Source of the DNA: Nitratidesulfovibrio vulgaris str. Hildenborough | Lineage (GTDB): Bacteria; Desulfobacterota; Desulfovibrionia; Desulfovibrionales; Desulfovibrionaceae | Direction: 5' to 3' | DNA: 32,000 nucleotides | Assembly: GCF_000195755.1 (NCBI RefSeq) | Contig: NC_005863.1 | Coordinates: 60,001 to 92,000, forward strand | Shown here: positions 2,503-26,784 of the stretch, in pieces | Layout: each line of letters opens with the position of its first letter | How positions within the stretch are numbered: position 1 is the first letter of the stretch | Notes under the pieces: model-generated | The model's database searches: none | Seen by the model: only the letters and a program-made list of their open reading frames with translations | Told to the model about the DNA's origin: nothing | Translations under genes and position numbers: made by a program

Positions 2503-3887
2503 GACGCCCGCGCGTGTGCATGTTGCTGGCCACCGACAGGCTTGGCGGCCCGGGCAAGGGTCTCGTGCAGTTCTTGCGGCACGGGGGGCTGGCGGGTTGC
2601 TCGCCCGTGGTGGTGGCCTACGAGGCGGGCGAACCCGGAGAGACGGAGTTCACGCGGGCCGTGCGCGACACGGGGGCCGACCTGCGCATCCTGCGGCAGC
2701 GCGGCGCGTTCGATGTCTCGCTCATCCCGCAGGCCCTGCGCGTGGTGCGGGATGAAGGCTGCGAGGTGTTGCAGTCGCACGGCTACAAGAGTCACGCGGT
2801 ATGCGCCTGCCTGCACGCCATGACGGGTCTGCCGTGGGTGGCCTTCGTGCATGGCTGGACGGCCGAGAACGTCAGGGTCCGCGCCTACAGGGTGCTTGAG
2901 CAGGCGCTGTTGCCGCTGGCGACGCGGGTCGTCGCCGTGTCGGACGCGCTGGGCCGCAGCGTGTGGCCTGCGGCGCGTCGGCGCATGGTGGTCATCCCCA
3001 ACGCCATCGACCCCGCCGAGGCCCTGCGCGACGGAGACGTGCCAGCCACCGGGCCGCACTCCGGGGCGCATCCGGACGCCTTCGCACAGGTACCACAGGT
3101 ACCGGGGGGGGCCTCGCAGCCCGAAGCGGGCGACCCCGCCGAGGCCCTGCGCGACGGAGACGTGCCAGCCACCGGCCTGTATGCGAGCCCCGATGCGAGC
3201 CCCGATGCGAGCCCCGATGCGAGCCCCGATGCGAGCCCGGATGCTAACCATGACACGGGTTCAGACGCAGGCAAGGGCGACCTGCGCGCCGCCTTCGGCA
3301 TCGCCGCCGACGCTCTCGTCGCCGGTGTCGTGGGGAGACTCAGCCCCGAGAAGGGGCACATCCATTTCCTGCGGGCGCTGGCCCGTGCGCGGCAGACCGA
3401 ACCACGCCTTGTGGGGCTGCTGGCTGGCGACGGCCCCGGTGCCGACATGCTGCGCCGCGAAGCGGACATGCTGGGCCTTGCCCATGCCGTGACCTTTGCG
3501 GGCCATGTGTCGCGCGTCGCCCGTGTCTACCGTGCGCTGGACGTGGCCGTGCTGCCCTCCCTCAGCGAGGGGATGCCCAACGCCGCCCTCGAGGCCATGC
3601 TGCACGGCCTGCCCGTGGTGGCAAGCCATGTGGGGGGCGTGCCGGAGGTGGTGCGCGACGGCGAGACGGGCCTTCTCGTGCCGCCGGGCGATGAGGCGCA
3701 GCTTGCCGCCGCGCTGGTCGCCCTGTGCGCCGACGTGGAACGCAGGAAGGTACTCGGGGCGCGCGGGCGTGAGCGTGTGCTCGGGCATTTTGCGCCGCAC
3801 CAGCGGGCCGAGAGGATTCTGGGACTCTATCATGAACTGCTGCAACCGCTTGCCGGAGAAGGACAACGCCATGCGAAGCTGGGCTGA
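2499..3887 (+). CDS. GT4-family glycosyltransferase with an internal repeat-rich insertion
   Basis: ATG 2499 overlaps the upstream stop (ATGA). The C-terminal half carries the GT4 signature GRLSPEKGH...[46 protein letters not shown]. The ORF-track entry 714..3887 is the same frame extended upstream through non-protein-like sequence. Confidence 0.85.
3009..3175. repeat. 44-bp perfect direct repeat (3009-3052 and 3132-3175) spaced 123 bp apart inside the GT4 gene
   Basis: GACCCCGCCGAGGCCCTGCGCGACGGAGACGTGCCAGCCACCGG occurs twice. It encodes [15 protein letters not shown] both times. The 123-bp spacing equals 41 codons. Confidence 0.9.
3181..3240. repeat. 12-nt tandem repeat x5 (ATGCGAGCCCCG), encodes (ASPD)n
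   Basis: I counted four perfect units and one variant unit, in frame within the GT4 gene. Confidence 0.95.
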
Positions 3888-4737
3888 ATTCAAGGTCGCC
3901 ATACGCAAGCGCGAGACGCCGTTCCACGCCTTCCTCTACGACGTGGCGAAGGCGCTGTTCGGCATCTCCGTGCCCGTGGTGCCGGGCTTGCACGCCTTTC
4001 TCTACAACGAATGGGCCACACGCACCTCGACGTGGCACAACTTCTGGCGCGTCGTCTATTACGAGCCGATGTTCAAGTCGCAATGCGCCCATGTGGGTAA
4101 GGGTTTTCGCATGTGGTACGCCGGAAACGGCACCACGCGCATCCTCGGCAAGCTCGCCATACACCTCGACGATGACGTGAGCATCTTCGACAACGTGTCC
4201 TTCGTCGGCCTTACAGTGTGCGAGAACCCTGAACTGCATATCGGAGAGGGAACCTACATCGCGCCTCGCGTGCGTTTCATGGTGGCGAAGAGCGTTCGCA
4301 TAGGGCGTCACAGTCTGGTTGGCTGCCACATGATCTTCGACAACTCCGGGCACCCCATCACCGACGCGCGGGCGCGCATGATGCGCGGGGGCGGACACCC
4401 TTCGGTGAAGGGGGTGAAGCCCGTCACCATCGGCGACCTGTGCTTCCTTGGCGAGGGCAGCTACGTCTACCCCGGCACCACGGTGGGGGATGGCGTGGTG
4501 GCGAAGGTGGGCACGCACATCATGGGCGACATCCCGCCCTTCTGCCTCATCGAGGGCAACCCCTGCCGCATCGTGGGCAAGCTGCCCATCAACGACGACC
4601 TCGCGGAGGTCTTCGGGCCCGAGAGGGTGGAGGCGTGGCGTGCGGCGCAGGCTTCGGTGGTGGTGGACGCCCCGCGACCGGGTGTGCCCGGTAGCGCGAG
4701 GGGTAACGGGACGGGCGAGGGGCAGTGTGATGGATAG
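3871..4737 (+). CDS. Left-handed beta-helix (hexapeptide-repeat) acetyltransferase, WcaF-like
   Basis: ATG 3871 ([13 protein letters not shown]...) overlaps the upstream gene by 17 nt. Hexapeptide-like repeats are visible: IGEGTYIAPRVRF..., IGRHSLVGCHMIFDNSGH, IGDLCFLGEGSYVYPGTTVGDGVVAKVGTHI. Confidence 0.75.
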   Translation: MRSWAEFKVAIRKRETPFHAFLYDVAKALFGISVPVVPGLHAFLYNEWATRTSTWHNFWRVVYYEPMFKSQCAHVGKGFRMWYAGNGTTRILGKLAIHLDDDVSIFDNVSFVGLTVCENPELHIGEGTYIAPRVRFMVAKSVRIGRHSLVGCHMIFDNSGHPITDARARMMRGGGHPSVKGVKPVTIGDLCFLGEGSYVYPGTTVGDGVVAKVGTHIMGDIPPFCLIEGNPCRIVGKLPINDDLAEVFGPERVEAWRAAQASVVVDAPRPGVPGSARGNGTGEGQCDG

Positions 4738-4828
4738 GGGGGCGTCGTGTCCGCACGGCGAGATACCGGGGCCCGGTACTGTACCCGGCGGCATCGCCGG
4801 GTGGTGTGCCGCCCGATGGCAGGGGGCC

Positions 4829-4900
4829 GACAGCCATGGTGACAGACATGGCGACAGGCATGATGACAGCCATGGCGGCGGACATGACAGTAGGCATGGC
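4829..4900. repeat. Degenerate 12-nt tandem repeat x6 (GACAGNCATGGY) between the two acetyltransferase genes
   Basis: The units are GACAGCCATGGT, GACAGACATGGC, GACAGGCATGAT, GACAGCCATGGC, GGCGGACATGAC and AGTAGGCATGGC. Confidence 0.85.
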
Positions 4901-4966
4901 GAAAGGCGCGAGGGACAGGGCGCGAAGGCCCGCCGGCGCAGCCGACCCGGGAGGAGGAGACGTGCA

Positions 4967-5575
4967 ATGAGGTCGTTCGTTCGTGACATGGCGCGGGGTG
5001 TGGCCCTTCTGGCGGCTGTGCCGTTCTATCTGCTGCACAGGGTCGAGTCGCTCGTCCTCGGGCGCGAACGGTCGTTCATGGGCCTGTCGCAACTTCTCGC
5101 GCTGGTTCCCGGCATCTATGGCGTGTGGCTGCGGGCGGCCTTCTACAGGCTGGCCCTGCGCAGTTGCCCGCAGTCGTGCGCCATCGAGTTCATGACCACC
5201 TTCGTCACCCCGGAGGCGGTACTCGGACGCAACGTCTACATCGGGTCGCACTGCAACATCGGGCTTGCCGACATCGGCGACGACTGCCTCATCGGGTCGC
5301 ATGTGCTGGTCACCAGCGGACGCAACGTCCATCACTTCGACGATGTGGAGACGCCCATCCGGTTGCAGGGCGGCGAGCGCGAGACGACGCGCATCGGGCG
5401 CGACTGCTGGATTGGCAACGGCGCGGTGGTCATGGCCGATGTGGGCGAGGGCTGCGTGGTGGCCGCCGGTGGCGTGGTCGTGTCGCCCCTGCCGCCGTAC
5501 AGCGTCGCCGCCGGGGTGCCCGCCCGCGTCATCCGCAAGCGTGGCGAACCCCGTGACGAGGGAGGCACGCCATGA
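4967..5575 (+). CDS. Hexapeptide-repeat O-acyltransferase with an N-terminal membrane anchor
   Basis: ATG 4967 is preceded by GGAGGAGGA (4951-4959). The sequence has an N-terminal hydrophobic segment followed by IGSHCNIGLADIGDDCLIGSHVLVTSG...IGRDCWIGNGAVVMADVGEGCVVAAGGVV. An alternative in-frame ATG at 4730 would add a His/Asp-rich repeat extension. Confidence 0.8.
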   Translation: MRSFVRDMARGVALLAAVPFYLLHRVESLVLGRERSFMGLSQLLALVPGIYGVWLRAAFYRLALRSCPQSCAIEFMTTFVTPEAVLGRNVYIGSHCNIGLADIGDDCLIGSHVLVTSGRNVHHFDDVETPIRLQGGERETTRIGRDCWIGNGAVVMADVGEGCVVAAGGVVVSPLPPYSVAAGVPARVIRKRGEPRDEGGTP

Positions 5576-6972
5576 GACCGCACGTCATGCAGCTCATCTT
5601 CAGGCTGGCCCCCGGAGGGGCCGAACGTCTGGCCCTCACCACCCTCGACAAGGCGGGAAGCATGATTCGCGGGTCGGTGTGCGGGCTTTTCGGGCACACG
5701 GGGCCGCTGGTGGCTGAACTCGAGCAGCGGCGCATACCGTGGTTCGGGCTGGACGTCATCGGACGCAGCAGACTGCCGGGCATCATGCGGCTGGCGGCGT
5801 TGCTGCGAAGGCAGCGGGTGGACGTGCTGCACGTGCAGGCGGCCTACCTGCTGCAATGGGCCGCGCCTGCGGCGTGGCTCACCGGCACGCGGCTGGTGTA
5901 CACCGAGCACTCTTCGCACACCTTCGAGACGCAACCGCGCATGGCGCGCCTTGTGCGGTGGATGGCCCCCTTCCTTGGCGGCATGTCGTGCGTCACCGAA
6001 CGCCTGCGCCGTTACATGACCGACCGGATGGGCATCGCCCCGCACCGGGTGCGGCTCATCCGCAACGGCGTGGACGTGGAACGCTTCTCGCCCCACGGCC
6101 CGGTGGCCCCCCTGCCGGACGGGTGGGCCCATGCCGCCGCCCCGGCCTCTGCCGACCATGGCGACCATGGCGACGGGGCCGGAGATGCCGCCAGCACTGG
6201 CCCCGCGGCCCCTGCGCGCCGTCCGGACGGGGCCGCCAGTGGCGACAGTGGCGACAGGGTCGTCATCGGCAACGTGGCCCGCTTCTGCGAGGCCAAGGAC
6301 CACCCCGGCCTGCTGCGCGCCTTCCACGACGTGCAGTCCACCCATCCCGCGGCCCGTCTGCTGCTGGTGGGCGACGGCGAGACCCGCCCGCAGGCCGAGG
6401 CCCTGCGCGACGCCCTCGCCCTTGGCGGCACCGTGCACTTCGCCGGAACGCGGCAGGACGTGCCCGCCCTGTTGCGGGCCATGACGGTGTTCGTGCTCTC
6501 GTCGCGGCATGAGGGGATGCCCGTGGCCGTGCTCGAAGCCATGGCCTGCGGTGTTCCGGTGGTGACCACCGACGTGGGCGGCATCGGTGAACTGGTGCGC
6601 GACGGCGAGACGGCCCGCATCGTGCCCCCCGGCGACCCGCAGGCCCTTGCCGACGCCCTGCGCTGGATGCTCGACCACCCCGCAGAACGCATGGCCATGC
6701 GCGACCGCGCCCTTGCCATGGTGCGCGCGCGGTGCGGGCATGATGTCATGGTGCGTGGCTATCTCGACCTGTATGGCGTCGCCGATGCGTCTTCCTTCGC
6801 GCTGCCCCGCACGGGCTACGCCACCGTCTCGCCCGCGTCCGCGTCCGTTTCCGCATCCCGCATATCCGAACCCGCCCCCCGTACATCCGAATCCACATCC
6901 CGTACGTCAGAATCCACACCCCGTACATCCGGCCCGACGGCCCCATCCCCAGACCGGAGGAATCGCCCGTGA
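5572..6972 (+). CDS. GT4-family glycosyltransferase with an internal low-complexity insertion and a repeat tail
   Basis: ATG 5572 overlaps the upstream stop (ATGA). The N-terminus is MQLIFRLAPGGAERL. The C-terminal half carries SSRHEGMPVAVLEAMACGVPVVTTDVGGIGELVRDGETARIVPPGD. Confidence 0.85.
   Translation: MRPHVMQLIFRLAPGGAERLALTTLDKAGSMIRGSVCGLFGHTGPLVAELEQRRIPWFGLDVIGRSRLPGIMRLAALLRRQRVDVLHVQAAYLLQWAAPAAWLTGTRLVYTEHSSHTFETQPRMARLVRWMAPFLGGMSCVTERLRRYMTDRMGIAPHRVRLIRNGVDVERFSPHGPVAPLPDGWAHAAAPASADHGDHGDGAGDAASTGPAAPARRPDGAASGDSGDRVVIGNVARFCEAKDHPGLLRAFHDVQSTHPAARLLLVGDGETRPQAEALRDALALGGTVHFAGTRQDVPALLRAMTVFVLSSRHEGMPVAVLEAMACGVPVVTTDVGGIGELVRDGETARIVPPGDPQALADALRWMLDHPAERMAMRDRALAMVRARCGHDVMVRGYLDLYGVADASSFALPRTGYATVSPASASVSASRISEPAPRTSESTSRTSESTPRTSGPTAPSPDRRNRP
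6877..6939. repeat. 21-nt tandem repeat x3, encodes PRTSEST/SRTSEST/PRTSGPT at the C-terminus of the second GT4 gene
   Basis: A codon-by-codon reading of 6877-6939 shows the three units. Confidence 0.85.
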
Positions 6973-7922
6973 CCCTAGCCGCCACCTTCAGGCAGCAGCC
7001 GCTGCACCTTCTGCCCGTCATCGCCATGTTCGCGGTGACGTACCATGCCATCGTCATGCGCATGGTGGGCGACTGGAACTTCGACCCCAACTATTCGCAC
7101 GGCTTTCTCGTGCCGTGTCTCGCGCTGTGGTTCGCGTGGATGCGCTGGCCCGAGTTGCGCGAGGCCGAGGTGCGGCCCTCGGCGTGGGGGCTTGGCCTGC
7201 TGGCTGCCGGTCTCTGTCTGCTGGTGCTCGGGTCTGTGCTCATCGAACTCTTCACCTCGCGCGCCTCGCTGGTGGTGCTGATGATGGGCACGGTGCTCTT
7301 CCTCTACGGGCGCGATGCCTTTCGCATCCTGCTGTTCCCGCTGGCGTACCTGCTGTTCATGATACCGCTGCCGTACACCGTCTACGACGCCCTCGCCCTG
7401 CCGCTGAAGGGGCTCGTCTCCTTCGCTGCCACGGGGGGCATCAAGCTTCTGGGGCTGCCCGTGCTGCGTGAGGGCAATGTCATCATCTTTCCCAACATCA
7501 CGCTGGAGGTGGTGGATGCGTGCAGCGGGCTGCGTTCCATCATGAGCCTTGCGGCACTGGGCACGGCCTTCGCCTTTCTCTTCCTGCCCGCCGGGTGGCG
7601 ACGCTGGACGCTGGTGCTCGCCACCGTACCCATCGCCGTGGCCACCAACACGTTGCGGGTCTTCGTCACCGGGGTGCTGTCGTGGTACATCGGCAAGGAC
7701 GCCGCCAGAGGTTTCTTCCATGATTTCGAAGGGCTCGTGGTGTTCGCGGTGGCCATGGCGCTGACGGCGGCGCTCGGCTTCGTGCTCGCCCGCGTGGGCA
7801 GGGCCTCCGCCAGACCGGACGCCAGACCGGACGCTGGGCCGGACGCTGGGCCGGACGCGGGGCCGGACGCTGGGCCCGGAACAGGTACGGGCGGCACGGG
7901 AGGAGGCGCACATGTGGGCTAG
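6969..7922 (+). CDS. xrtA: Exosortase (EpsH family; XrtA subtype inferred from context)
   Basis: The GTG 6969 start lies 8 nt after GGAGG (6956-6960) and overlaps the upstream stop. Exosortase hallmarks are present: DPNYSHGFLVP near the N-terminus, the catalytic-Cys motif LEVVDACSGLRSIMS, NTLRVF, and about 8 TM helices. The subtype is inferred from the adjacent EpsI, PrsR/PrsK, FemAB-like and PLP-decarboxylase genes. Confidence 0.9.
   Translation: MTLAATFRQQPLHLLPVIAMFAVTYHAIVMRMVGDWNFDPNYSHGFLVPCLALWFAWMRWPELREAEVRPSAWGLGLLAAGLCLLVLGSVLIELFTSRASLVVLMMGTVLFLYGRDAFRILLFPLAYLLFMIPLPYTVYDALALPLKGLVSFAATGGIKLLGLPVLREGNVIIFPNITLEVVDACSGLRSIMSLAALGTAFAFLFLPAGWRRWTLVLATVPIAVATNTLRVFVTGVLSWYIGKDAARGFFHDFEGLVVFAVAMALTAALGFVLARVGRASARPDARPDAGPDAGPDAGPDAGPGTGTGGTGGGAHVG
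7809..7880. repeat. 12-nt tandem repeat x6 (GCNNGRCCGGAC), encodes (A-R/G-P-D)n at the exosortase C-terminus
   Basis: I indexed the units at 7809, 7821, 7833, 7845, 7857 and 7869. Confidence 0.95.
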
Positions 7923-8532
7923 GGTTCTCATCATCGTCGCGTTCCTCGCCGTGGGGGCCTATTTCGGGCAGGGCCGCGTGGAGTCCGCCGTGCTGACGCA
8001 GCGCGCGCTGGACGACTTCCCGGCGTCCGTGGGGCCATGGCGCAGTGCAGGGCAGGTCTTCTTCGACGGCAGGACGCTGTCGGTGCTGCGCCCCACCGAC
8101 TACCTCTACCGCCTCTACACCGACGGCGAGCACCGCATCGGCCTGTACGTGGGTTTCCACGGGGGCGGCGAGGGCGCAGGGCCCATCCATTCGCCGCGCA
8201 ACTGCCTGCCGAGTTCGGGGTGGGCGATGCTGGACGAGACCCGACGCGACCTTCAGACCCCGCAGGGCCCGGTGCGCCTCGTGCGGGCCACCTTCGCCAA
8301 GGGCGACGAGGGCAGCGTGTACTACTACTGGTATCAGGTCAGGGGCGCGACCATGGCGGGCGACCTCGAACTGAAGCTGGCAGAATTGCGGAACGCCTTC
8401 CTGCATGCACGGCGCGACGCCGCGTTCATCAGGCTCGATGTGCCGCTGGCGCAGGCCGCAGGCGCGGACGAGGCGGTGGCGGACTTCGTGACCCGGCTGT
8501 ACCCGCTGCTGCTGGACTACCTGCCCCGCTAG
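7912..8532 (+). CDS. epsI: EpsI-family exosortase-associated protein
   Basis: ATG 7912 follows GGGAGGAGG and overlaps the exosortase gene by 11 nt. It has an N-terminal signal anchor (ARVLIIVAFLAVGAYF). The motifs LRPTDYLYRLY, IGLYVGFH...IHSPRNCLPSSGW and YYYWYQVRG are typical of EpsI. Confidence 0.85.
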   Translation: MWARVLIIVAFLAVGAYFGQGRVESAVLTQRALDDFPASVGPWRSAGQVFFDGRTLSVLRPTDYLYRLYTDGEHRIGLYVGFHGGGEGAGPIHSPRNCLPSSGWAMLDETRRDLQTPQGPVRLVRATFAKGDEGSVYYYWYQVRGATMAGDLELKLAELRNAFLHARRDAAFIRLDVPLAQAAGADEAVADFVTRLYPLLLDYLPR

Positions 8533-8686
8533 GGCGGGGCGCGCGGCGGACGGCGATGCGAGGACACGACATGCGGGCGCGACGCGGAAGACGCCATGTG
8601 AAAGGCACGATGTGCCCGACGGGACAGGGAACGCGCGACGGGAACTGCGGGACGCAACGACAGGACGCAGGACGCAAGGAGAAGCC

Positions 8687-10117
8687 ATGCCGGGGCTGTT
8701 GATTGTCGAAGACAACGAGGATGTACGCAGGCAACTGCGATGGGGGCTTGCGAAAGAACCCTACGACCTGCATCTGGCGGGGTCGGTGGACGAGGCGCTT
8801 GCCCTGCAACGTGAGCACGCCCCGGCGGTGGTGACGCTCGACCTCGGCCTGCCGCCGGACGCGGAGGGCGCGTCGGAGGGCTTCAGGGGGCTTGCGGCGC
8901 TTCTCGACCACGACCCGCGCACCAAGGTCATCGTGGTCACCGGGCATCACGACATGGAGAACGCCCTTCGCGCCATCGAAGGCGGGGCGTACGACTTCTG
9001 CCAGAAGCCCGCCGACCTCGAGATGCTCAAGGTGATCATCAGCCGCGCCTTCTTCCTGCATGGCCTGCAGGGGGGCGGCGCCATGGCGTCCGCATCGGGT
9101 ATGGCGTCGGCATCGGGTGGTGCCTCCGCCCCGGACGCCGTTTCAGGCGCGGGTGCCGGGGGGGGCAAGCCCGACGACGGCTGGCAGGGCATCGTGGGGC
9201 GGTGTCCGTCCATGCGGGCGGTGTTCGAGACCGTCGCCAAGGTCGCGGTCACCGGCGCCCCGGTGCTGGTCACCGGCGAATCGGGCACAGGCAAGGAACT
9301 GGTGGCTAGGGCCATCCACGCCCTCGGGCCGCGCTGCACCCGCACCTTCGTCGCCATCAACTGCGGGGCCATCCCCGACAACCTGCTCGAGGCCGAGTTC
9401 TTCGGCTACGAGAAGGGTGCGTTCACCGGGGCCACGCAACGGGTGCAGGGCAAGGTGGAATACGCCGACGGCGGCACGCTGTTCCTCGACGAGATAGGCG
9501 AGTTGCCCGCCAACCTTCAGGTGAAGCTGCTGCGCTTCCTGCAGGAGAAGGTCATCCAGCGGGTGGGCGGACGCAAGGACATCGCGGTGGATGCGCGCAT
9601 CGTCGCGGCAACCAACCGCGACATCCAGACCGAGATAGCCAGCGGGCGGTTCCGTGAAGACCTCTACTACCGCATCGGCGTCGTGCCCGTGGCCCTGCCG
9701 CCGCTTCGTGCGCGTGGCGACGACATCCTGCTGCTGGCGCGCCATTTCCTCGAAAGCAGCGCGGGTGAGGGCACCGGTAACATCGTGGGCTTCTCGCCCG
9801 CGGCGGAACAGGCCATGCTGCGATACGCATGGCCCGGCAACGTGCGCGAACTCGAGAACAAGGTGCGGCGCGCCGTCATCTTCGCCAGCGGGCGGCGCAT
9901 CATGCCCGACGACCTCGGCTTCGACGAGACCCCCGCCAAGGCGGCCGCCCCACGACCCGAAGGTTCGCTGCGCGAGGCGCGCAACGCGCTCGAACGCGAC
10001 ATGGTGCTTTCCGCGCTGGACAAGTGCGGCGGCAACATCGTGCAGGCGTCACTGGCCATCGGCGTGAGTCGCCCCACCTTCTACGACCTGTTGCGCAAGC
10101 ACGGCATCGAGGCGTGA
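8687..10117 (+). CDS. prsR: Sigma54-dependent response regulator (PEP-CTERM-box regulator PrsR type)
   Basis: ATG 8687 follows AAGGAGAAG. It has a receiver domain (LLIVEDNEDVR...VVTLDLGLPPD), an AAA+ sigma54-activator core (VLVTGESGTGKELVARAIH, GAFTGA, ESELFGYEKGAF-like EAEFFGYEKGAFTG) and a C-terminal Fis-type HTH. It sits directly downstream of the exosortase and epsI genes. Confidence 0.85.
   Translation: MPGLLIVEDNEDVRRQLRWGLAKEPYDLHLAGSVDEALALQREHAPAVVTLDLGLPPDAEGASEGFRGLAALLDHDPRTKVIVVTGHHDMENALRAIEGGAYDFCQKPADLEMLKVIISRAFFLHGLQGGGAMASASGMASASGGASAPDAVSGAGAGGGKPDDGWQGIVGRCPSMRAVFETVAKVAVTGAPVLVTGESGTGKELVARAIHALGPRCTRTFVAINCGAIPDNLLEAEFFGYEKGAFTGATQRVQGKVEYADGGTLFLDEIGELPANLQVKLLRFLQEKVIQRVGGRKDIAVDARIVAATNRDIQTEIASGRFREDLYYRIGVVPVALPPLRARGDDILLLARHFLESSAGEGTGNIVGFSPAAEQAMLRYAWPGNVRELENKVRRAVIFASGRRIMPDDLGFDETPAKAAAPRPEGSLREARNALERDMVLSALDKCGGNIVQASLAIGVSRPTFYDLLRKHGIEA
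9083..9118. repeat. 18-nt tandem repeat x2 (ATGGCGTCSGCATCGGGT) in the PrsR receiver/AAA+ linker
   Basis: It encodes MASASG twice within a Gly/Ala/Ser-rich linker. Confidence 0.9.
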
Positions 10118-18479: not shown

Positions 18480-20092
18480 GCCACATGATGCAACTGACGG
18501 GCAGCCTGCTGCGACGCGCTTCGTACAGACGGCAGATGCGGCAGGGCAGGCCGCCCCTCTCGCTGTGGGGCCTCGCCGACGAGGACGGCGTTCTCACCGT
18601 GGGCGGGGCCTCCGCCGTGGCGCTGGCAGCCGCGTATGGCACGCCGCTTCTGGTGGTGGACGAGAAGGCCCTGCGGGCCAAGGTGGCAGAGGTGCGGGCG
18701 GTGCTCGACGACGAGTTGCCCGGTGCCCGGCTGACCTATTCGTACAAGACCAACTGCATCCCCGGCATCCTGCGCGTGCTGCACGACGCGGGCGTGGGGG
18801 CCGAGGCCATCTCGGCCTATGAGTACTGGCTGGCACAGAGCCTTGGCGTACCGGGCGAACAGCTCATCTACAACGGTGTGGACAAGTCGCCCGAGAGCCT
18901 CGCAATGGCGGTGGCGCACGGCGCGCTCATCAACATCGACAACCGCGACGAGGTGGACGCGGTGCTGGCGACGGCCCGCGCACAGGGGCGGGTGGCCCGC
19001 ATCGGCCTGCGGCTTGGGCTCAACCGCAGCGCGCAATTCGGTCTCGACCCCGACAGCGCGGAAGGTGACGGCGACATCGCCCATGTCGTGGCCCGCTGCA
19101 AGGCCCACCCGGAGCACGCCTCGCTGGAGGCGCTGCACTTCAACGTCACCAGCAACGCACGGCACAGCGGCTACCATGTGCGCTGCCTCGCCCTCGCCCT
19201 CGACGTGATGCGCACCCTCGCCCGCGTCCACGGGGTGCACATACGGCTTCTCGACGTGGGCGGCGGCTTCGGCGTGCAGACCAGCAAGAACATGTCCGGC
19301 GTGGAATACGGCCTGTACCGACTGTTCGGGGTGGCACCGGGCGGGGCGTGGCTCGACCCGTTCCAGGACTTCCGCCTCTACATCCGCGACATGGCTGCGC
19401 TGCTGACCTCGTACTGCCGCGACAATGCCCTGCCGCAGCCCGTGGTCTGCCTCGAACCGGGCAGGCTGCTCACCAGCGGGGCCGAACTGCTGCTGACCCG
19501 CGTGAAGGCCGTCAAGGAACGGCCCGGGGCGGAACCCTTCGCCATCACCGACGGGGGGCGTCTCTCGCAGGCCTACCCCTGCGACTTCGAATGGCACGAG
19601 GCCTTTCTCGCCAACGACCTGCGCAGGCCGCTTGCACGCGCCTACACGGTGACGGGCAGGGTCTGCACGCGTTCCGACTGGCTGTACCGGGGCAAGGTCA
19701 TGCCTGAACTCGCTTCCGGTGACATCCTCGCCGTGCTGGACGCCGGGGCCTATTTCTCGTCGTACGCCATGAACTTCGCCTTCCCGCGTGCCGCCGTGGT
19801 GGGCGTGGAGGACGGGCGGGCGCGTGTGATGCGCCACCGCGAGACCTTCCGCCACCTGACGGCCATGGATGAGGTGCAACTGGTCGATGTGAAGCTGGAC
19901 GGAGTGGCACTGGACGACGAGGCGTCGGCAGGGGCAGGGCCCCACGAGACGGGATGCGTCGGGATGTCCGGGGCTCTTGGGGCATCCGGGGCCGGGGGGC
20001 TGCCGGGTATGCCCGCCGCACCGTCACCGGGCACGCCGTCATCCCCGCCGAGAGCGCATGGCACGACGGGCACGCGAGGGGGCGGCGCATGA
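18467..20092 (+). CDS. PLP-dependent decarboxylase, Orn/DAP/Arg decarboxylase fold (exosortase-system-associated type)
   Basis: ATG 18467 lies 6 nt after GAGG and overlaps the upstream gene by 13 nt. The sequence reads GTPLLVVDEKALRAKV...LTYSYKTNCIPGILRVLHDAGVGAEAISAYEY...LIYNGVDKS, then HFNVTS...LDVGGGFG, then GRVCTRSDWL...GDILAVLDAGAY. It has a low-complexity C-terminal extension. Confidence 0.85.
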   Translation: MSLMSHMMQLTGSLLRRASYRRQMRQGRPPLSLWGLADEDGVLTVGGASAVALAAAYGTPLLVVDEKALRAKVAEVRAVLDDELPGARLTYSYKTNCIPGILRVLHDAGVGAEAISAYEYWLAQSLGVPGEQLIYNGVDKSPESLAMAVAHGALINIDNRDEVDAVLATARAQGRVARIGLRLGLNRSAQFGLDPDSAEGDGDIAHVVARCKAHPEHASLEALHFNVTSNARHSGYHVRCLALALDVMRTLARVHGVHIRLLDVGGGFGVQTSKNMSGVEYGLYRLFGVAPGGAWLDPFQDFRLYIRDMAALLTSYCRDNALPQPVVCLEPGRLLTSGAELLLTRVKAVKERPGAEPFAITDGGRLSQAYPCDFEWHEAFLANDLRRPLARAYTVTGRVCTRSDWLYRGKVMPELASGDILAVLDAGAYFSSYAMNFAFPRAAVVGVEDGRARVMRHRETFRHLTAMDEVQLVDVKLDGVALDDEASAGAGPHETGCVGMSGALGASGAGGLPGMPAAPSPGTPSSPPRAHGTTGTRGGGA

Positions 20093-21096
20093 CAGGTCAC
20101 GCCCTGCATATCGCCCCCTGCGGGCCGTCACGCCACGCCGAGTGGGATGCCTTCGTCGAGGCGCATCCCGCCCGCCCGCTGTTCCATTCACGGCGGTGGC
20201 TGTCGTTGCTCGCCCGCCATCAGGGCGTGCGTCTCGACCTCCATTGCATCGAGGCGCAAGGCCGCGTGGTGGGGCTGCTGCCCATGTTCAGCCGGGGCTA
20301 CGGCGTCATCCGGGTGCATTCGTCGCCCTATGTGGTGACGGATACGCCCTACCTCGGCCCGCTGGTGGACGACGACGTGTCGCCTCATGCCCTGTGGGCC
20401 GCGCTTCTCGACCATGCGCGGCACAGCGGCATGGACTTCGTGCGCCTGTTCACCCGTGTGGGTATGGCGTGCCCCCCCGTGGACGGCACGCCCGCCGGGG
20501 TGCAGCGCAAGACCACGCATGTGCTCGACCTCACGCCGGGGGAGGAGGCCCTCTGGAACGGTCTGGAGGGGCGCTGCCGCACGGCGGTGCGCAAGGCCGC
20601 CAAGGAGGGCGTGACCGTGGAACCCATGGCGGACGATGCCGCCCTCGAACGGTTCGTGGACATGCTCGAAGGCGTCTACGCCCGACAGGGGCTGACCTCG
20701 CCCAACCCCCGCGCCTTCTACCGCGACGTGTGGCGCACCTTCGGCGGGCGCGAGGTCGTGGGGCTGACGGCGCGGCACGAGGGACGCGACATCGCCTCGG
20801 CGCTCTTCGTCATGGACGCGCGCGACGCCTACTACATCAGCGGTGCCTCGGCGGGCGACTGCGGGCGGTTGTCGCCCAACAACATCCTGCAATGGGAGGC
20901 CATACGCCTCGCCCTCGCGCGGGGGGTGGTCAGGTACGACTTCGTGGGGTCCGACATCCCGCGCATCGCACGTTTCAAGGCGAGTTTCGGCGGGCAGCTG
21001 CATGAATACTGGTGCGTCGAGTGCGCGCCATCCCGCGTGGCGCGCTTCATGCGCGCTGCCTACCCGTGGCTCAAACGGCGACTGGGCAGGGTGTGA
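20089..21096 (+). CDS. FemAB-like (GNAT-fold) protein, PEP-CTERM-system-associated type
   Basis: ATG 20089 overlaps the upstream stop (ATGA). The motifs are WDAFVEAHPARPLFHSRRWLSLL, GLLPMF, GRCRTAVRKAAKEGVTVE, and YDFVGSDIPRIARFKASFGGQL at the C-terminus. Confidence 0.8.
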   Translation: MTGHALHIAPCGPSRHAEWDAFVEAHPARPLFHSRRWLSLLARHQGVRLDLHCIEAQGRVVGLLPMFSRGYGVIRVHSSPYVVTDTPYLGPLVDDDVSPHALWAALLDHARHSGMDFVRLFTRVGMACPPVDGTPAGVQRKTTHVLDLTPGEEALWNGLEGRCRTAVRKAAKEGVTVEPMADDAALERFVDMLEGVYARQGLTSPNPRAFYRDVWRTFGGREVVGLTARHEGRDIASALFVMDARDAYYISGASAGDCGRLSPNNILQWEAIRLALARGVVRYDFVGSDIPRIARFKASFGGQLHEYWCVECAPSRVARFMRAAYPWLKRRLGRV

Positions 21097-21163
21097 TGAC
21101 GGCACGGCACGACGCAGAGAGACCCCGGCACCAGCGCCGGGGAAGGGAAACGGAGGCGGCAGC

Positions 21164-22885
21164 ATGATAGGATATGCGCGCATGATGTTGCACAGGCTGA
21201 GCAACAGCGCGTGCCATGCGAGGATGCGCGAGCATCTCGCACTGGAACGGCTGCCGCACGACGAGTTGCGGCAGAGGCAGTTCTGGGTCGCGGTCACGCT
21301 GCTCAAGCACGCCTACGAGACGGTGCCCCATTACCGTGCGCTCATGGACGGGGCGGGGCTGCATCCCGACGCGGTACGCAGCTTCGCGGACTTCGCGGCG
21401 CTGCCCGTGCTGCGCCGGTGGCCCGCCGGGGCACCTGCGCCCGACCTCGTGTCCAAGGCCCTGCCCCGCAAGGCGCTGGCGGCGCTGCAAGGGCAGTCTG
21501 CCGAGAACGGGGGCTGCCTGCCCGCGCCCATCCTGCGCGACCGCGCCGCCCGCGACGAGACGCAGGCCAACTGGCTGCTGTGCCTCACCTTCGCGGGATG
21601 GACACAGGCGGACATGGTGGTGCGGCTGTATGCCGCGTCGGGCGACGAGTCGGGCGACCTGCTGCACCCCGGCGTGCGCGAATGGCTGGCGGGGACCCTC
21701 GCCGTGGACGGCTGCACCTACGCACCGGACGCCGTGGCGCAGTGGGTGAAGGCCATCCGCCGTTGCGGCAGGGCCTATGTGCTGGGCAATGCTCGCGTCA
21801 TGGCGGACATGGCGGACTTCATGCGCGAGGGCGGCATCCGGCTTGGCAACGTGCGCGGGGCCGTGGTGTCGGGCGGCAGGGGCGACCACCACCCGTATGC
21901 GAACGGCCTTCCGGATGCTGGCGGCCTGCATATCGGGGTGCCCGGCCAGACCGACCAGACCGGCCAGACCGGCCAGACCGGCCACGCCGTGCACACGGGG
22001 CCTGCCGACGGTGACGGGACGGGGCGGCAGCGCATCGCCGAGGCCTTCGGCTGCCCGGTGTTCGACCTGTACGGCTGCGCCGAGGTGCCCTGCATCGCCA
22101 TGCAATGCGGCGCGGGCAACCTGCACCTGCTGACGCACTCGGCCCATGTGGCGTTCGAACCCGATGCCGCGTGCGGCCCGCCACGCCTCATCGTCACCGA
22201 CCTCAACAACAGGGCCATGCCCGTGCTGCGCTTCGACACCGGCGACCACGGCGTGCCCGTGGACGGCCCGTGCCCCTGCGGGCGCGGTTTCCCGCTGATG
22301 CGGCGCGTGCCCGCCACCGGGACGTGGTTTCAGACGGTGGAAGGGCGGTTCATCCCCGGCGACGCGTTCGCCCGTGGTCTTGCCGCCCGTCTGGACGCAC
22401 TTCTGGCACTCGTCCCCGGCGAGAGTGCTGCCGGAGGGCACCCCGACGGGGGTGCGGCGCGGCACGGCGACGGTGATGGAGAGGGCGGAGGCAACGGAAG
22501 CGATAACCGTGGCACCGGGCATCATGCGGGACATGACACCGCGCATGGCGGCAGCCATCAGATGGGGCCTCACATGGGGCGTGGCGACAGCCGGCACCCC
22601 GCGCACAGGGGCGGGCGTGGCGCATACCGCGCATGGCCCGCCTTCAGGCAGGTGGTCCCCGGCGTCGTCCACGTCGTCCTTCCGGCGGAGTGCGCCATGG
22701 GTGCGACCCCCTTCGGGGCCCTCGTGCGTGACACCGTGCGCGAGGTCGTGCGCGACGCCGCGCAAGGGGCCGGGGCCGCAGACGCCTCGGCGCTGGCGAC
22801 CCTGACGTTCGTGCAGGCGACGACTCCAGCGGGGCGCGACGCTTCGCACGGGGGCGGACCGCCGCAAGGAGGGCACAGGCCATGA
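21164..22885 (+). CDS. Phenylacetate-CoA ligase (PaaK/CapK)-like adenylate-forming enzyme with two insertions
   Basis: ATG 21164 follows CGGAGGCGG. The sequence LERLPHDELRQRQFWVAVTLLKHAYETVPHYRALMDGAGLHPDAVRSFADFAALPVLRR matches the PaaK-family N-terminus. FDLYGCAEVPCIAMQC...HLL appears later. Confidence 0.75.
   Translation: MIGYARMMLHRLSNSACHARMREHLALERLPHDELRQRQFWVAVTLLKHAYETVPHYRALMDGAGLHPDAVRSFADFAALPVLRRWPAGAPAPDLVSKALPRKALAALQGQSAENGGCLPAPILRDRAARDETQANWLLCLTFAGWTQADMVVRLYAASGDESGDLLHPGVREWLAGTLAVDGCTYAPDAVAQWVKAIRRCGRAYVLGNARVMADMADFMREGGIRLGNVRGAVVSGGRGDHHPYANGLPDAGGLHIGVPGQTDQTGQTGQTGHAVHTGPADGDGTGRQRIAEAFGCPVFDLYGCAEVPCIAMQCGAGNLHLLTHSAHVAFEPDAACGPPRLIVTDLNNRAMPVLRFDTGDHGVPVDGPCPCGRGFPLMRRVPATGTWFQTVEGRFIPGDAFARGLAARLDALLALVPGESAAGGHPDGGAARHGDGDGEGGGNGSDNRGTGHHAGHDTAHGGSHQMGPHMGRGDSRHPAHRGGRGAYRAWPAFRQVVPGVVHVVLPAECAMGATPFGALVRDTVREVVRDAAQGAGAADASALATLTFVQATTPAGRDASHGGGPPQGGHRP
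21947..21982. repeat. 9-nt tandem repeat x4 (CAGACCGRC), encodes QTD(QTG)3 in the PaaK-like gene
   Basis: I indexed the units at 21947, 21956, 21965 and 21974. Confidence 0.95.
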
Positions 22886-24918
22886 CCATCGTCCTCGCGT
22901 GTCTCGTGGTGGTGCTGACGGTGGCGGGCACGGCCCGCGCCCTGCACGAGTCGGGGCGGGCGGCTGCGCCGCGCGTGGTGGCCCCGGTGCTCACGGCCGT
23001 TCTCGTGGTGGCCGAGACCTATCTCGCCGTGGCCACCGAGGTCGCGCCGTGGACGTTGCAGGCGACGCTCATCCTTCAGGCGCTGCTGGCCCCGGCGTGG
23101 GCCACGTTCGCCCTGTGCTACGGGCGCGAGTGCTCATGGCGCACGCTGCCGCGCAGCGGCAGGCTGCTGCTGGCCCTGTCGCTGTCGCCCGTGCTCATGG
23201 CGGCCGTGCTGCCACCCGATCAGTTGTTCTATCTTGCCGACTTCACGGCCGAACGAGTCTTCTACCTCGAACCGCGCGCCTTCTTCCTCTACCTGCAACT
23301 GCTGCTGTGCCTGCTGCTGTCGGCGGGCAACCTCGAGACCACGCTCCGCAACAGCCGCCACAGCCAGCGCTGGCGCATCAAGCTGGCCCTCGTCGGCATG
23401 GGGGCGGTGCTCGCGGCGCTCTGCCTGCAATACGGGCAGGGGCTGGTCATCCGCACCCTCGACCTCGGCTATGTGGGGCTGCGCAACGGGGCCGTGGCGC
23501 TTGGCTTCGCGCTGTTCCTCTTCGCCGAGACGCGCCGTGGCAGCGACAAGGTGCACATCGCGCGGCGTCTGGCCTTCCGGTCCGTGGTCGCCATCATCGC
23601 GGGCGGGTACCTGCTTGGACTCGGCGTGCTGCGCGAGGGCGTGCGTCTGGCGGGGCCTGATTTCGAACGGCACTTCGCGCTGGCCATCGTCTTCGCCGTC
23701 GTCCTCGCGGGGTTGATCATCCTGCTGTCGGACCACCTGCGCAGGCGGTTCAGCATCTGGATGCACCGCACCTTCTACAACGAGAAGTACGACTACCGCA
23801 CACAGTGGATCAACTTCACCGACATGCTCTCCCATGCCCGCAACACCCGCGACTTCGTGGACGTGATGCTGGTGGGCCTGTGCGATGCCTTCGGCTTCGT
23901 GGGGGCTGCCTTCGTGCCCGCCGACTTCGAACACCCCGGACAGGCCCGCGACGCCGTGGTCTACGAGATGGAACCGCTGCCGCCCACGCTGCCCGCCACG
24001 GCCTTCGGCGGACTGCTGGTCTACGAGGGTGGCCCGTGCACGCTGGACACGGTGGCGGGGCTCTTGAGCGAAGACGCGCTCGAAGCCCTGCAAGACGCCG
24101 GGGTGGGCCTCGTGCTGCCGGTGCGCACCGTGGAGGGCTGCGAGGGGGTGGTGCTACTGGCACGGCCCATCGACACCCGCGAGGAGCACGACCTTGAGGA
24201 CTTCGAACTCCTCGAGGCCATGGGACGCCAGATAGCCCTGTGCGTGCGCAGCTTCCGCCTTGGCGACGAACTGGCGGTGGCGCGCGAGATGGAGGCGCTG
24301 GGCCGCTTCGCCGCGCTGGTGATGCACGACCTCAAGAATCAGGTCTACGCGCTCTCGCTGCTGGTGGACAACGCGCGGCTGTACATCGCCGAACCCGAGT
24401 TCCAGCGCGACCTTGTGGAGACGCTCACCAACAGCGTCAGCAACATGCGCAACCTCATCTCGCAACTGACGCGCCTGCCGGGGCGCGAGAACCTGCATCT
24501 CGCCCCTGTCGACCTCATGGAACTGGCACGCGAGGCGTGCGCCAGCCTGCCGGGGGCGGACATCCGCTTCGAGGGCGCGGGGGTGCGGGCCGCGGTCGAT
24601 GCGGAGCAGGTGTCGAAGGTGCTCGTGAACCTGTGCCTCAACGCCATCGAGGCCGACCCCGCGGGGCCGGTGGTGGTGCGGGTGGGTGTGAACGGCGGCC
24701 CGCTCATCAAGGTCGAGGACTCGGCGGGCGGCATCGACCCCGCCCTGTTGCGCGACGGACTGTTCAAGCCCTTCAGATCGACCAAGAAGCGCGGCATGGG
24801 CATCGGCCTGTACCATTGCCGCAAGATCGTCGAGGCGCACGGTGGCACCATCGGCGTGGAGTCGCAGCCCGGACGCGGCAGCACCTTCACCGTGCAGTTC
24901 GCCCGGAGGGAGGGCTGA
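22882..24918 (+). CDS. prsK: PEP-CTERM-system histidine kinase (PrsK type): polytopic sensor, GAF, HisKA and HATPase domains
   Basis: ATG 22882 overlaps the upstream stop (ATGA) and is preceded by GGAGGG. It has about 8 N-terminal TM helices, a GAF-like middle region, the H-box FAALVMHDLKNQV, the N-box LVNLCLNAIEA, G1 VEDSAGGID and G2 GMGIGLYHCRKIVEAHGG. Confidence 0.85.
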   Translation: MTIVLACLVVVLTVAGTARALHESGRAAAPRVVAPVLTAVLVVAETYLAVATEVAPWTLQATLILQALLAPAWATFALCYGRECSWRTLPRSGRLLLALSLSPVLMAAVLPPDQLFYLADFTAERVFYLEPRAFFLYLQLLLCLLLSAGNLETTLRNSRHSQRWRIKLALVGMGAVLAALCLQYGQGLVIRTLDLGYVGLRNGAVALGFALFLFAETRRGSDKVHIARRLAFRSVVAIIAGGYLLGLGVLREGVRLAGPDFERHFALAIVFAVVLAGLIILLSDHLRRRFSIWMHRTFYNEKYDYRTQWINFTDMLSHARNTRDFVDVMLVGLCDAFGFVGAAFVPADFEHPGQARDAVVYEMEPLPPTLPATAFGGLLVYEGGPCTLDTVAGLLSEDALEALQDAGVGLVLPVRTVEGCEGVVLLARPIDTREEHDLEDFELLEAMGRQIALCVRSFRLGDELAVAREMEALGRFAALVMHDLKNQVYALSLLVDNARLYIAEPEFQRDLVETLTNSVSNMRNLISQLTRLPGRENLHLAPVDLMELAREACASLPGADIRFEGAGVRAAVDAEQVSKVLVNLCLNAIEADPAGPVVVRVGVNGGPLIKVEDSAGGIDPALLRDGLFKPFRSTKKRGMGIGLYHCRKIVEAHGGTIGVESQPGRGSTFTVQFARREG

Positions 24919-25371
24919 CGGTTCGGTGAAGGATGACGTGACGGGAGCGTAAGGGCGGCGCGTAGCCGGGGCATATGACTGGCAGGGCATGGCAGCGGGA
25001 CGTGCCAGCGGGACGTGACAGGTGCGCGTGTCCGGCGGGGGTGTCCGGCGGGTGGAGGGAGACGGAGGTGGTGACGGGCGCGGCGAAGGCGCGACATCTT
25101 CGGCCTTGCGAGGGGCGTCGTGCCGTGTCCGGGTCGACCCGGGGCGATGCAGGCGTCACCCGGCACTCGTCACCCGGCGGCGTTCGGCGGTGCGTACCCG
25201 GCGGGCCATGTCGGCCGCGTCCGAGCGGGGGCCACCCGCTGGCGTACGGTCGGGAGTCACCGAAAGGCGTGCCGGGAGTGCAAGGGCGGCATCGCGCGGC
25301 GCGGTGCGTCGTCACCGGAGGGCATCGGGCATCATCGTACAACACGGCTTTGCGACGACGAGGGGATGATC

Positions 25372-26784
25372 ATGTACCGCAATATCGTGTTCAAGGGCGG
25401 GGGCATCAAGGGGCTGGCCTACGCCGGGGCCTTGCGCGCCATGGGGCGGCACGGGATGTTGCGGGATGTGCGCCGCACCGCCGGGACGTCGTCGGGAGCC
25501 ATGGCCGCCGTCTTTCTCGCACTGGGGGCCACGCCCGACCAGATGGTGGACATCCTGCTGCGCACCCCGTTCCACAAGTTCATGGACGGTTCGCGCTGGC
25601 TTGGCGGCGACTTGCAGCGACTGGTGCGCGATTTCGGCTGGTTCAAGGGCGAAGTGCTCGAACGCTGGGCGCGGTCGAACATCGGCGTGCTGACCGGAAA
25701 GCCGCACATGACCTTCGGTGAACTGCGCCAGCGGGCCGATGTCGAACCGGGGCGCTTTCTCGACCTCACGGTGGTGGGGGCCAACCTCTCGCGCGAGACG
25801 CCCGAACTCTTCAACGCCGAACGCACGCCCGACACCCCCATCCACGAGGCCCTGCGCATCTCCATGAGCATCCCGCTGTTCTTCACGGCGGTGCGCAACA
25901 GCCGGGGCGAGGTGCTGGTGGATGGCAGCGTCATCTGGAACTACCCCATCTCGCTGTACGACCGCGCACGCTACGTGATGCACGGCGATCACGTGCGGGG
26001 CGATGCCGGACACGGCGAAGCGGGGCGGAGCGGGGCGACGCGGGATGCTGCGGGGCGGTGTGATACGTCGGGCTGGAATGTGCCACCGAGAGACGCAAGC
26101 CGGGTACGCGCGGGGCAGGGTGATGCGGTGCACGGCAGCGCCGTGCGGGGCGAAGATGGTCCGGGCGATGCATCACCGGATGCTTGCGGGCGTCGCCTCA
26201 CTGGACAGGGCAACGCGATGCACGGTGAGGACGGGCAGGCTGACACCCCGCCGGGTGAGTCCAGACAGGGCGATGCGAGGCAGAACGTTGCCCTACGGGG
26301 TGACGCCGCTCCCGGCGAATATGGTCCGGGCGAATATGGTCCGGGCGATGCCAGACCAGGCGAAGCAGGACGCGGCGTAGCGAGGGGGGATACACCTCGG
26401 CAGGGCAAGGCCGGTCGGGGTGATGCGGGGCAGGGTGATGCATGTCCGCACAATCCCGACGCCGTGACCTTCAACCGCGAGACGCTGGGCTTCATGGTCG
26501 AATCGCGACACGGTGAGGAGTTGCTTCACCACGACGTCACCCCCGTGGCGGACTTCCGCACCTACCTGCGCTCCATTCTCGGCTTCATCACCGACAGCAT
26601 GCACAGCGCCTACCTGTCGGAACACGACTGGAAGCGTACCGTGCTCATCGACGCACTGGGGGTGCGTACCACCGACTTCCAGATCTCGCGCGAACAGGTG
26701 CGCAGCCTCATCGACAGTGGCGACAGGTGCGTCGAGGCCTTCATTGCCAGCCGCAAGGGCTACCGTGATGGGGGCATGGCATGA
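25372..26784 (+). CDS. Patatin-like phospholipase with a roughly 157-aa low-complexity insertion
   Basis: The oxyanion motif FKGGGIKG, the nucleophile motif GTSSGA and the catalytic Asp motif LVDGSV are present. ATG 25372 lies 6 nt after GAGGGG. An in-frame ATG at 25366 is an alternative start. Confidence 0.85.
   Translation: MYRNIVFKGGGIKGLAYAGALRAMGRHGMLRDVRRTAGTSSGAMAAVFLALGATPDQMVDILLRTPFHKFMDGSRWLGGDLQRLVRDFGWFKGEVLERWARSNIGVLTGKPHMTFGELRQRADVEPGRFLDLTVVGANLSRETPELFNAERTPDTPIHEALRISMSIPLFFTAVRNSRGEVLVDGSVIWNYPISLYDRARYVMHGDHVRGDAGHGEAGRSGATRDAAGRCDTSGWNVPPRDASRVRAGQGDAVHGSAVRGEDGPGDASPDACGRRLTGQGNAMHGEDGQADTPPGESRQGDARQNVALRGDAAPGEYGPGEYGPGDARPGEAGRGVARGDTPRQGKAGRGDAGQGDACPHNPDAVTFNRETLGFMVESRHGEELLHHDVTPVADFRTYLRSILGFITDSMHSAYLSEHDWKRTVLIDALGVRTTDFQISREQVRSLIDSGDRCVEAFIASRKGYRDGGMA
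26314..26343. repeat. 15-nt perfect tandem repeat x2 (GGCGAATATGGTCCG) inside the patatin insertion
   Basis: It encodes GEYGP twice. It is embedded in a longer degenerate G-D-A-rich tract. Confidence 0.9.

Follow-up and report, generated by a model that had tools for sequence, protein, structure and literature searches.

The DNA examined here is a stretch of 32,000 nt (hereafter the window) that is 100% identical to positions 54558–86557 of the Nitratidesulfovibrio vulgaris RCH1 megaplasmid pDEVAL01 (pDV1 type; NC_017311.1), and protein accessions identify this RCH1 locus with the pDV1 locus of strain Hildenborough. Its first ~26800 positions carry an XrtA/PEP-CTERM exopolysaccharide (EPS) operon block of 19 genes (G1–G19), within and between which we find short tandem repeats, with units of 9–21 nt in 2–8 copies, as well as low-complexity segments that appear to be their decayed remnants. 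We regard these as probably coding and non-coding variable-number tandem repeats (VNTRs) of the minisatellite type, a by-product of slippage that is tolerated across the GC-rich megaplasmid rather than an operon-specific switch. The repeats are enriched over expectation, occupy particular positions in the encoded proteins, differ in copy number between strains, show different periods in coding and non-coding DNA, extend over the whole plasmid and become denser with rising GC content. They have the properties by which coding VNTRs are defined and fail the tests that define contingency loci.

Tandem repeats and their polymorphism among strains

Arrays were called with Tandem Repeats Finder (TRF) and counted at a score of at least 50. 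The operon block (window 1–26800) contained 17 arrays with a combined length of 885 bp, 15 of them with a period divisible by 3, compared with 0.67 ± 0.69 arrays in 100 dinucleotide-preserving shuffled controls; the lower-GC tail of the window (26801–32000) contained none at this score. Every tract catalogued by eye in a preliminary description of the sequence was recovered by TRF at nearly the same coordinates, and the tandem head-to-tail copies expected of a coding VNTR are thus present above chance. Match percentages ranged from 69 to 100%, with many arrays imperfect. Two imperfect arrays, at 9230–9278 (Walker-A region of G9) and 17027–17056 (a membrane segment of G13), were invariant among strains, lie within structured domains and are probably incidental.

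To follow the tracts between strains, the window was aligned with seven distinct N. vulgaris haplotypes (eight in total, ~99% identical), including the finished DP4 and L2 plasmids. In the eight-haplotype alignment (18.6 kb), 337 of the 18,188 ungapped columns were variable. There were also 20 indel blocks, nearly all of which fell at repeat tracts and had lengths divisible by that of the repeat unit found there; G14, G15, G17 and G19, in the second half of the locus, behaved alike. Ten of the 11 catalogued tracts differed among the haplotypes by whole units and in frame, the exception being the linker repeat of the response regulator PrsR. A lack of copy-number polymorphism, named in the preliminary description as grounds for rejecting its idea of an active expansion process, was therefore not seen across the eight haplotypes, and the whole-unit differences between strains are those of coding VNTRs. 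Public protein-cluster members form clean length ladders with steps of 3, 4 or 5 aa (G12, G14, G17), and at least 11 protein lengths (455–476 aa) occur in the public protein collection for G6. At the same time, the EpsI sequence is identical on many public contigs while the neighbouring proteins vary in length.

Strain pairs with a site difference of 0.45–0.77% already differed at 4–11 of 13 tracts, indicating that tracts change about a hundredfold faster than individual nucleotide sites do. Hildenborough-type alleles, on the other hand, were identical in five independent assemblies (L005, L008, L009, L010 and L092, which match the window exactly over 14–22 kb) and were found on 71–117 contigs each, a constancy that would rule out rates as high as those of true contingency loci.

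Across the whole plasmid, periods were divisible by 3 in 47 of 48 arrays within coding sequences (CDS) and in 13 of 30 non-coding arrays (p = 2.7e-8, Fisher test), the single discordant CDS array lying in a doubtful 78-aa open reading frame (ORF). Array density in plasmid non-coding DNA was 4x that of coding DNA. This contrast points to an unbiased input from slippage, followed by selection against frameshifts, and explains the earlier statement that every period is a multiple of 3, which is correct for coding DNA and fails for the two 13-nt arrays in the G18–G19 spacer. The reading frame is preserved as in coding VNTRs, with strain alleles keeping ORFs open except in one homopolymer case. Repeat units are essentially unique to their locus: only 14 of ~2850 array pairs share even one 10-mer, which indicates local origin rather than spread and rules out a mobile, spreading repeat element.

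Larger rearrangements were found at direct repeats. In G3, the 147 nt between two 56-nt direct repeats are deleted exactly in three strains, and other strains carry a diverged second copy; in G19, strain L2 has a 300-nt in-frame deletion flanked by an 11/13-identical direct repeat, CGGGGYGAYGCCG. Together with the whole-unit changes, these junctions suggest slippage or microhomology.

Position of the repeats in the encoded proteins

A GC3 frame plot resolved window positions 1 to ~26800 (~70% GC) as one co-directional operon block on the + strand, whereas beyond ~26900 GC falls to 51–59% and genes lie on the opposite strand. NCBIfam families assigned to G1–G19 include a Wzx-like flippase, GT1 and GT4 glycosyltransferases (TIGR03088-like) and two hexapeptide acetyltransferases; an exosortase, EpsI, the sigma-54 response regulator PrsR (G9, DVUA0057) and the kinase PrsK; a BNR/sialidase-like protein, two ATP-grasp enzymes, an acyltransferase_3, an HGSNAT-like membrane protein and a pyridoxal phosphate (PLP) decarboxylase; and a FemAB-like protein, a PaaK-like ligase and a patatin-like lipase (G19). 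The exosortase (TIGR02602, 305 bits), EpsI (154.7 bits), PrsR (TIGR02915, 585 bits) and PrsK (TIGR02916, 407 bits) all exceed their curated cut-offs (105.6, 42.8, 502.6 and 300, respectively), and the combination of exosortase, EpsI, PrsR/PrsK pair and EPS genes is that of an XrtA/PEP-CTERM EPS locus. PEP-CTERM proteins are annotated upstream of it on the plasmid. Against the XrtA-specific model, the exosortase (6969–7922) scored 200.7 bits, slightly below the cut-off of 208, which leaves its subtype borderline while the general exosortase model is clearly passed. The DVUA0057 regulator has been purified, and DAP-chip showed its binding to PEP-CTERM gene targets (PMC3333781; see also PMC4641369).

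We compared the proteins with orthologs from N. liaohensis (same gene order, 60–80% identity) and from a 54%-GC Desulfovibrionaceae metagenome-assembled genome (MAG). In 14 of 16 genes, N. vulgaris carried segments absent from both sets of orthologs, and this extra sequence, 786 residues in all, makes up 9.2% of the locus proteome. The earlier claim that almost every gene is affected holds by this measure of low-complexity segments, and is reduced to 10 of 19 gene models when arrays with a TRF score of at least 50 are required. The inserts consist of 80% G/A/P/S/T/D/H/Q and 9% hydrophobic residues, versus 48% and 36% in the remaining protein, and both their composition and their position fit disorder. 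As previously proposed, G, D, A, P, S and T are enriched in them, along with Q; His, also on the original list, is not enriched overall (1.09x) and is abundant in a few tracts.

The extra segments form C-terminal tails in G2, G4, G6, G7, G12 and G15 and an N-terminal tail in G13. Inside proteins they are found at the Rossmann-domain junction of both GT4 enzymes, in the linker between the REC and AAA+ domains of PrsR, and in loops of the ATP-grasp, ligase and patatin proteins. Ortholog comparison and solved homologs thus agree with the earlier placement in linkers, tails and loops. When PrsR is compared with the solved homolog 4l4u, residues 4–122 and 170–475 align and the linker between them measures 48 aa, versus ~24 aa in the homolog; in G3, comparison with solved homologs places the repeat ahead of the well-aligned C-terminal domain. 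Catalytic motifs, said to be intact, are indeed present in the translations: both GT4 enzymes show EX7E, G9 has GAFTGA and Walker A, the patatin G19 has GXSXG together with the DG dyad, and G18 has the H-box. The overall ratio of non-synonymous to synonymous polymorphism (pN/pS) between RCH1 and DP4 was 0.29, and the operon genes remain under purifying selection. That function is retained with the repeats in place is supported by this ratio and by DVUA0057, an active DNA-binding regulator carrying a repeat linker (PMC3333781).

Plasmid-wide spread, origin and alternative explanations

The preliminary description had treated the repeats as a peculiarity of this locus, and the plasmid as a whole does not bear this out. 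The entire 202-kb plasmid contained 78 arrays (0.39/kb), with 0.63 arrays/kb in the operon region and 0.7–0.9/kb in both the T3SS (type III secretion system) block and the 180–200 kb region, while lower-GC plasmid blocks had almost none. Enrichment of the locus within the plasmid is weak (1.8x over the remainder, p = 0.025), with other blocks equally dense, and the strongest predictor of density was local GC (5.8-fold per +0.1 GC, p = 5e-7). Length polymorphism is likewise not confined to the operon: over the 14 kb of T3SS genes (NC_017311.1 149000–163000), three strains differed by 24 indel blocks, which preserve the frame where they fall in coding DNA and measure 3–108 nt. The 108-nt event is a single insertion in DP4.

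For comparison, we sampled 58 kb of N. vulgaris chromosome around the cytochrome c3, flavodoxin and HydA genes, using probe sequences that were each confirmed by a 100%-identity match. Array density in this sample was 0.086/kb (5 arrays), making the locus 7.3x (p = 1.4e-5) and the plasmid 4.5x (p = 6e-5) denser. Indels of at least 9 nt numbered 5.3 per 100 variable sites in the EPS genes and 3.6 in the T3SS genes, versus 0 of 323 in the chromosomal hyd region. Uniform density everywhere, the outcome that was to mark the repeats as a simple genomic trait, is therefore half borne out, holding across the plasmid and failing for the poorer chromosome sample (58 kb). A generic property of PEP-CTERM/EPS loci is ruled out by 54 orthologous PrsK neighbourhoods from other species (0.04–0.10/kb) and by the N. 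liaohensis ortholog locus (0.05/kb at 65% GC), and unrelated Azospirillum, Burkholderia and Ralstonia replicons at 67–69% GC reached 0.12–0.15/kb. The chromosome of a related species at 69% GC, by contrast, showed 0.30 arrays/kb, so plasmids are not strictly the only replicons with this tendency. Our chromosomal samples contained just one large array, a 102-nt x5.4 repeat near cytochrome c3 (L096 11061–11613; TRF score 889), presumably a repeated protein domain. A scan of viral contigs for the Mu transposase, as a route to further chromosomal sequence, found nothing.

Under the explanation we favour, replication slippage, together with duplication and deletion between short direct repeats in very GC-rich megaplasmid DNA, would create the VNTRs; within genes only units divisible by 3 would survive, frameshifting ones being purged. 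Repeats would then persist where additional disordered residues are tolerated, namely in tails at either terminus, in linkers between domains and in surface loops of proteins that stay functional, and would eventually decay into low-complexity segments rich in G/A/P/S/T/D/Q. Turnover of the tracts would outpace point substitution between strains while remaining stable on laboratory time-scales and switching no gene on or off, and the EPS operon, being the plasmid's most GC-rich, accessory part, would be where a trait shown by the whole replicon is at its densest. Both the role of slippage as the molecular mechanism and the near-neutral character of the length variants are inferences.

This places the tracts beside the bacterial coding VNTRs and minisatellites used in multiple-locus VNTR analysis (MLVA typing; Mycobacterium, Burkholderia, Ralstonia), which they resemble in their head-to-tail units of ~9–21 nt, generation by slippage, whole-unit differences between strains and in-frame location inside genes. 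They are unlike these in density (0.4–0.6 arrays/kb, compared with 0.12–0.15 in the sampled high-GC replicons) and in being concentrated in biosynthetic enzymes, cytoplasmic or membrane-bound, and in regulators encoded by a single megaplasmid, instead of in surface adhesins. G/A/P/S/T-rich inserts in linkers and tails of conserved proteins are also a feature of prokaryotic low-complexity regions (Ntountoumi et al. 2019, PMC6821194); the inserts here, however, are not conserved, are missing from sister-species orthologs and are visibly made and lost via tandem repeats. In a literature search that was not exhaustive, we found no report of such repeat richness for D. vulgaris or pDV1.

Several observations sit uneasily with tolerated slippage as a full account. 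After GC correction, a 2.5x excess of the plasmid over the 58-kb chromosome sample is left (p = 0.035), the plasmid is 3–5x denser than the unrelated 67–69% GC replicons, and its non-coding density looks ~10x higher than in the chromosome sample, which is itself small and biased to housekeeping genes. Some of the arrays counted as non-coding may lie in decayed genes, given that PLSDB annotation omits pseudogenes. More than one protein shares a peptide theme (GQT in both G12 and G17, and tails rich in P/T/S), a possible hint of function. Given the excess in density, something beyond GC and relaxed protein constraint may act on the plasmid.

One alternative is repeats of the kind described in Borgs, in which repeat creation would be specific to the plasmid, and selection would keep the new disordered tails and linkers because they adjust how EPS and T3SS proteins are spaced, interact or become modified. 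Borg amino-acid tandem repeats (aaTRs; PMC9879509) likewise occur on an extrachromosomal element that has more repeats than its host's chromosome (here, than the 58-kb sample), turn over fast, have locus-unique units and encode peptides of disorder-type composition, and their ORF units are divisible by 3 whereas intergenic ones mostly are not, the same contrast as on this plasmid. The excess over the chromosome, before and after GC correction, the excess over unrelated high-GC replicons and the indel rates on plasmid and chromosome all favour such an origin. We nonetheless consider it unlikely. In Borgs the repeats are perfect and rich in A (Schoelmerich et al. 2023, PMC9879509), whereas those described here are imperfect (70–100% matches), set in 70% GC sequence, and decay to low complexity, consistent with repeats that arise and are lost again without being maintained. 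Relative to the chromosome they are enriched few-fold, with arrays present in the 58-kb sample, and not near-absolute or of several orders of magnitude as in Borgs; the 69%-GC chromosome of the related species shows that the trait is not confined to plasmids; repeats occur in proteins of every cellular location; and we are dealing with a bacterial host and a circular 202-kb plasmid on which selection for the peptides is not in evidence. The broader proposition, that pDV1-type megaplasmids possess a replicon-specific repeat-generating regime (possible causes being replication mode or copy-to-copy recombination) making new disordered EPS and T3SS tails and linkers, some retained by selection, as a bacterial counterpart of Borg aaTRs, is in our judgement quite unlikely.

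The preliminary description had also suggested that an active slippage process might be exploited as contingency-style length variation. Activity and tolerance are supported by the ten polymorphic tracts; use of the repeats as hypermutable switches varying the EPS machinery within populations is very improbable. The locus does make a surface polymer, the usual setting for contingency genes, copy-number polymorphism among strains is high, and, as in the contingency loci of Haemophilus, Neisseria and Campylobacter, lengths are unstable in surface-glycan genes, with a run of eight G residues in the glycosyltransferase gene G3 for which one assembly shows a frameshifting allele of seven. In those systems, though, switching normally acts at 5' ends or promoters, while the repeats here lie in tails and linkers; coding units are divisible by 3 and repeat alleles keep the ORF open, so that on/off switching by repeat change is not observed apart from that single, unverified frameshift allele. 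Hypermutability within a clonal lineage was not found at the assembly level either, where Hildenborough-type alleles are the same in at least five independent assemblies over 14–22 kb and across many laboratory-derived contigs, and the same repeat behaviour recurs plasmid-wide in T3SS genes and non-coding DNA. The G run at 3104–3111 is the only tract of phase-variation type and could be either a truly phase-variable tract or a homopolymer sequencing error: other runs of eight G or C (9158, 14058) are invariant, and the assembly concerned (L002) has another isolated 1-nt deletion, making a sequencing error plausible.

Relaxed selection or pseudogenisation, with any insertion tolerated in a decaying locus, is highly unlikely. 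The plasmid is dispensable in the laboratory, its loss leaving a viable strain (PMC3333781), and pN/pS approaches 1 in a few small genes (G5, G6, G12) for which counts are tiny. The overall ratio of 0.29 and the intact ORFs in all strains rule out pseudogenisation; catalytic motifs are present, PrsR and PrsK score above curated cut-offs, DVUA0057 is biochemically active, and the plasmid-free strain forms ~three-fold less biofilm (PMC3333781). That the repeats are assembly errors or an expected by-product of 70% GC is scarcely credible, even though high-GC low-complexity sequence raises the short-repeat background and repeats are a known source of assembly error, since dinucleotide and codon shuffles exclude a chance or compositional origin, unrelated 67–69% GC DNA has 4–5x fewer arrays, identical alleles are found again in finished genomes and SRA assemblies of independent origin, and the complete RCH1, DP4 and L2 genomes differ by exact unit multiples.

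The tracts offer ready markers of high discriminating power by which N. vulgaris strains and plasmid lineages can be typed, with clean ladders and uniform Hildenborough-derived laboratory lines. Judged from sequence comparison, 10–150 residues of disordered-type sequence can quickly be gained or lost, with function retained, by proteins of an accessory replicon that include enzymes, membrane proteins and a sigma-54 regulator. The megaplasmid may also turn its repeats over faster than the chromosome with which it shares a cell; the organism is genetically tractable and its plasmid is curable.

Individual tracts and neighbouring features

The individual tracts are listed in Table 1. Nearly all of the G19 insert is missing from the N. 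liaohensis ortholog.

Table 1 Repeat tracts and related features of the EPS operon block (window coordinates)
Feature	Position	Strand	Evidence and variation among strains
XrtA/PEP-CTERM EPS operon block, 19 genes (G1–G19)	1..26784	+	GC3 frame plot, NCBIfam, RefSeq annotation of NC_017311.1
G3 (GT4), 56-nt direct duplication (2997–3052 and 3120–3175; 91% identical, spacing 123 nt), 15-aa peptide encoded twice	2997..3175	+	
G3, G8 homopolymer	3104..3111	+	G7 in one assembly (L002, GCA_902167245.1), giving a frameshift and a 325-aa product
G3, 12 nt x5.3, (DASP)n, junction before C-terminal Rossmann domain	3181..3244	+	TRF; strains span 0–159 nt; not in L012 ortholog
G4–G5 spacer, 12 nt x6.7 (36-nt super-unit)	4828..4907	+	TRF; 12-nt difference between strains
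G6 (GT4), inter-domain insert: 9 nt x2.4 (6153–6174, DHG) and 9 nt x2.3 (6237–6257, SGD)	6139..6258	+	insert of 4–112 nt in strains
G6, C-terminal tail, 21 nt x3.9, PRTSEST-like units	6850..6931 (TRF 6851–6931)	+	alleles 0/21/42 nt
G7 exosortase, C-terminal tail, 12 nt x5.2, (PDAG)n	7815..7876	+	alleles 0/12/24 nt
G9 PrsR/DVUA0057, REC-AAA+ linker, 18 nt x2.0, (MASASG)2	9083..9118	+	no polymorphism in 8 haplotypes
G10, N-terminal region/start-codon zone, 12 nt x5.3	10283..10346	+	12-nt steps among strains
G11 ATP-grasp, 64-aa low-complexity loop	13730..13921	+	not in N. liaohensis ortholog; no intact array, decayed repeat
G11–G12 spacer, 12 nt x2.8	14331..14363	+	one unit fewer in 2 strains
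G12 acyltransferase_3, C-terminal tail, 15 nt x8.3, (GQTxS)n	15650..15773	+	15-nt steps; 441/446/451/461 aa
G13, N-terminal tail: 12 nt x2.4, (PTPA)n (15851–15879), and 18 nt x3.2, (PPGQAN)n (15906–15962)	15851..15962	+	alleles 4/16 nt; 0/18/36 nt
G14 ATP-grasp, loop: 12 nt x3.2, (GVSP)n (18153–18191), and adjoining 12 nt x2.7	18153..18224	+	431/435/439/443/447 aa
G15 PLP decarboxylase, C-terminal low-complexity tail	19913..20089	+	18-nt insertion at 20010 in DP4 and L2
G17 PaaK-like ligase, loop, 9 nt x4.8, (GQT)n	21942..21984	+	L2 one unit fewer; alleles 570/573 aa
G18–G19 (PrsK–patatin) spacer, two 13-nt x2 arrays, period not divisible by 3	24993..25052	+	whole-unit gain in L2
G19 patatin, internal G/D/A/R-rich insert, ~145 aa, including 15 nt x2.6, (GEYGP)n (26310–26348)	25978..26445	+	DP4 +15 nt

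Repeats of this kind lead to inconsistent start-site and length calls across assemblies, and annotation should be read with this in mind. For the sialidase-like G10, annotated starts disagree (866, 894, 902, 906 or 911 aa), and the variable 12-nt repeat overlaps the start region (10158–10346). At position 4743, just past the G4 stop codon, Hildenborough/RCH1 lacks 1 nt that is present in all seven other haplotypes; the loss brings the upstream ATG at 4730 into frame with G5 in the Hildenborough/RCH1 lineage alone, and the G4–G5 repeat falls in the interval from this ATG to the annotated start of G5. In the spacer upstream of the patatin gene (24993–25200), 13-nt units resembling GGTGTCCGGCGGG are gained or lost whole between strains and might be protein-binding direct repeats.

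Downstream of the operon, window positions 26900–32000 (51–60% GC) are the start of a second glycan-synthesis cluster of ~23 kb (NC_017311.1 ~81.4–104 kb), which ends at a tyrosine integrase (plasmid 104223–105254) and is almost devoid of tandem repeats. The plasmid of strain L2 lacks this cluster, with homology stopping at window ~26803, and the cluster looks like an inserted island.

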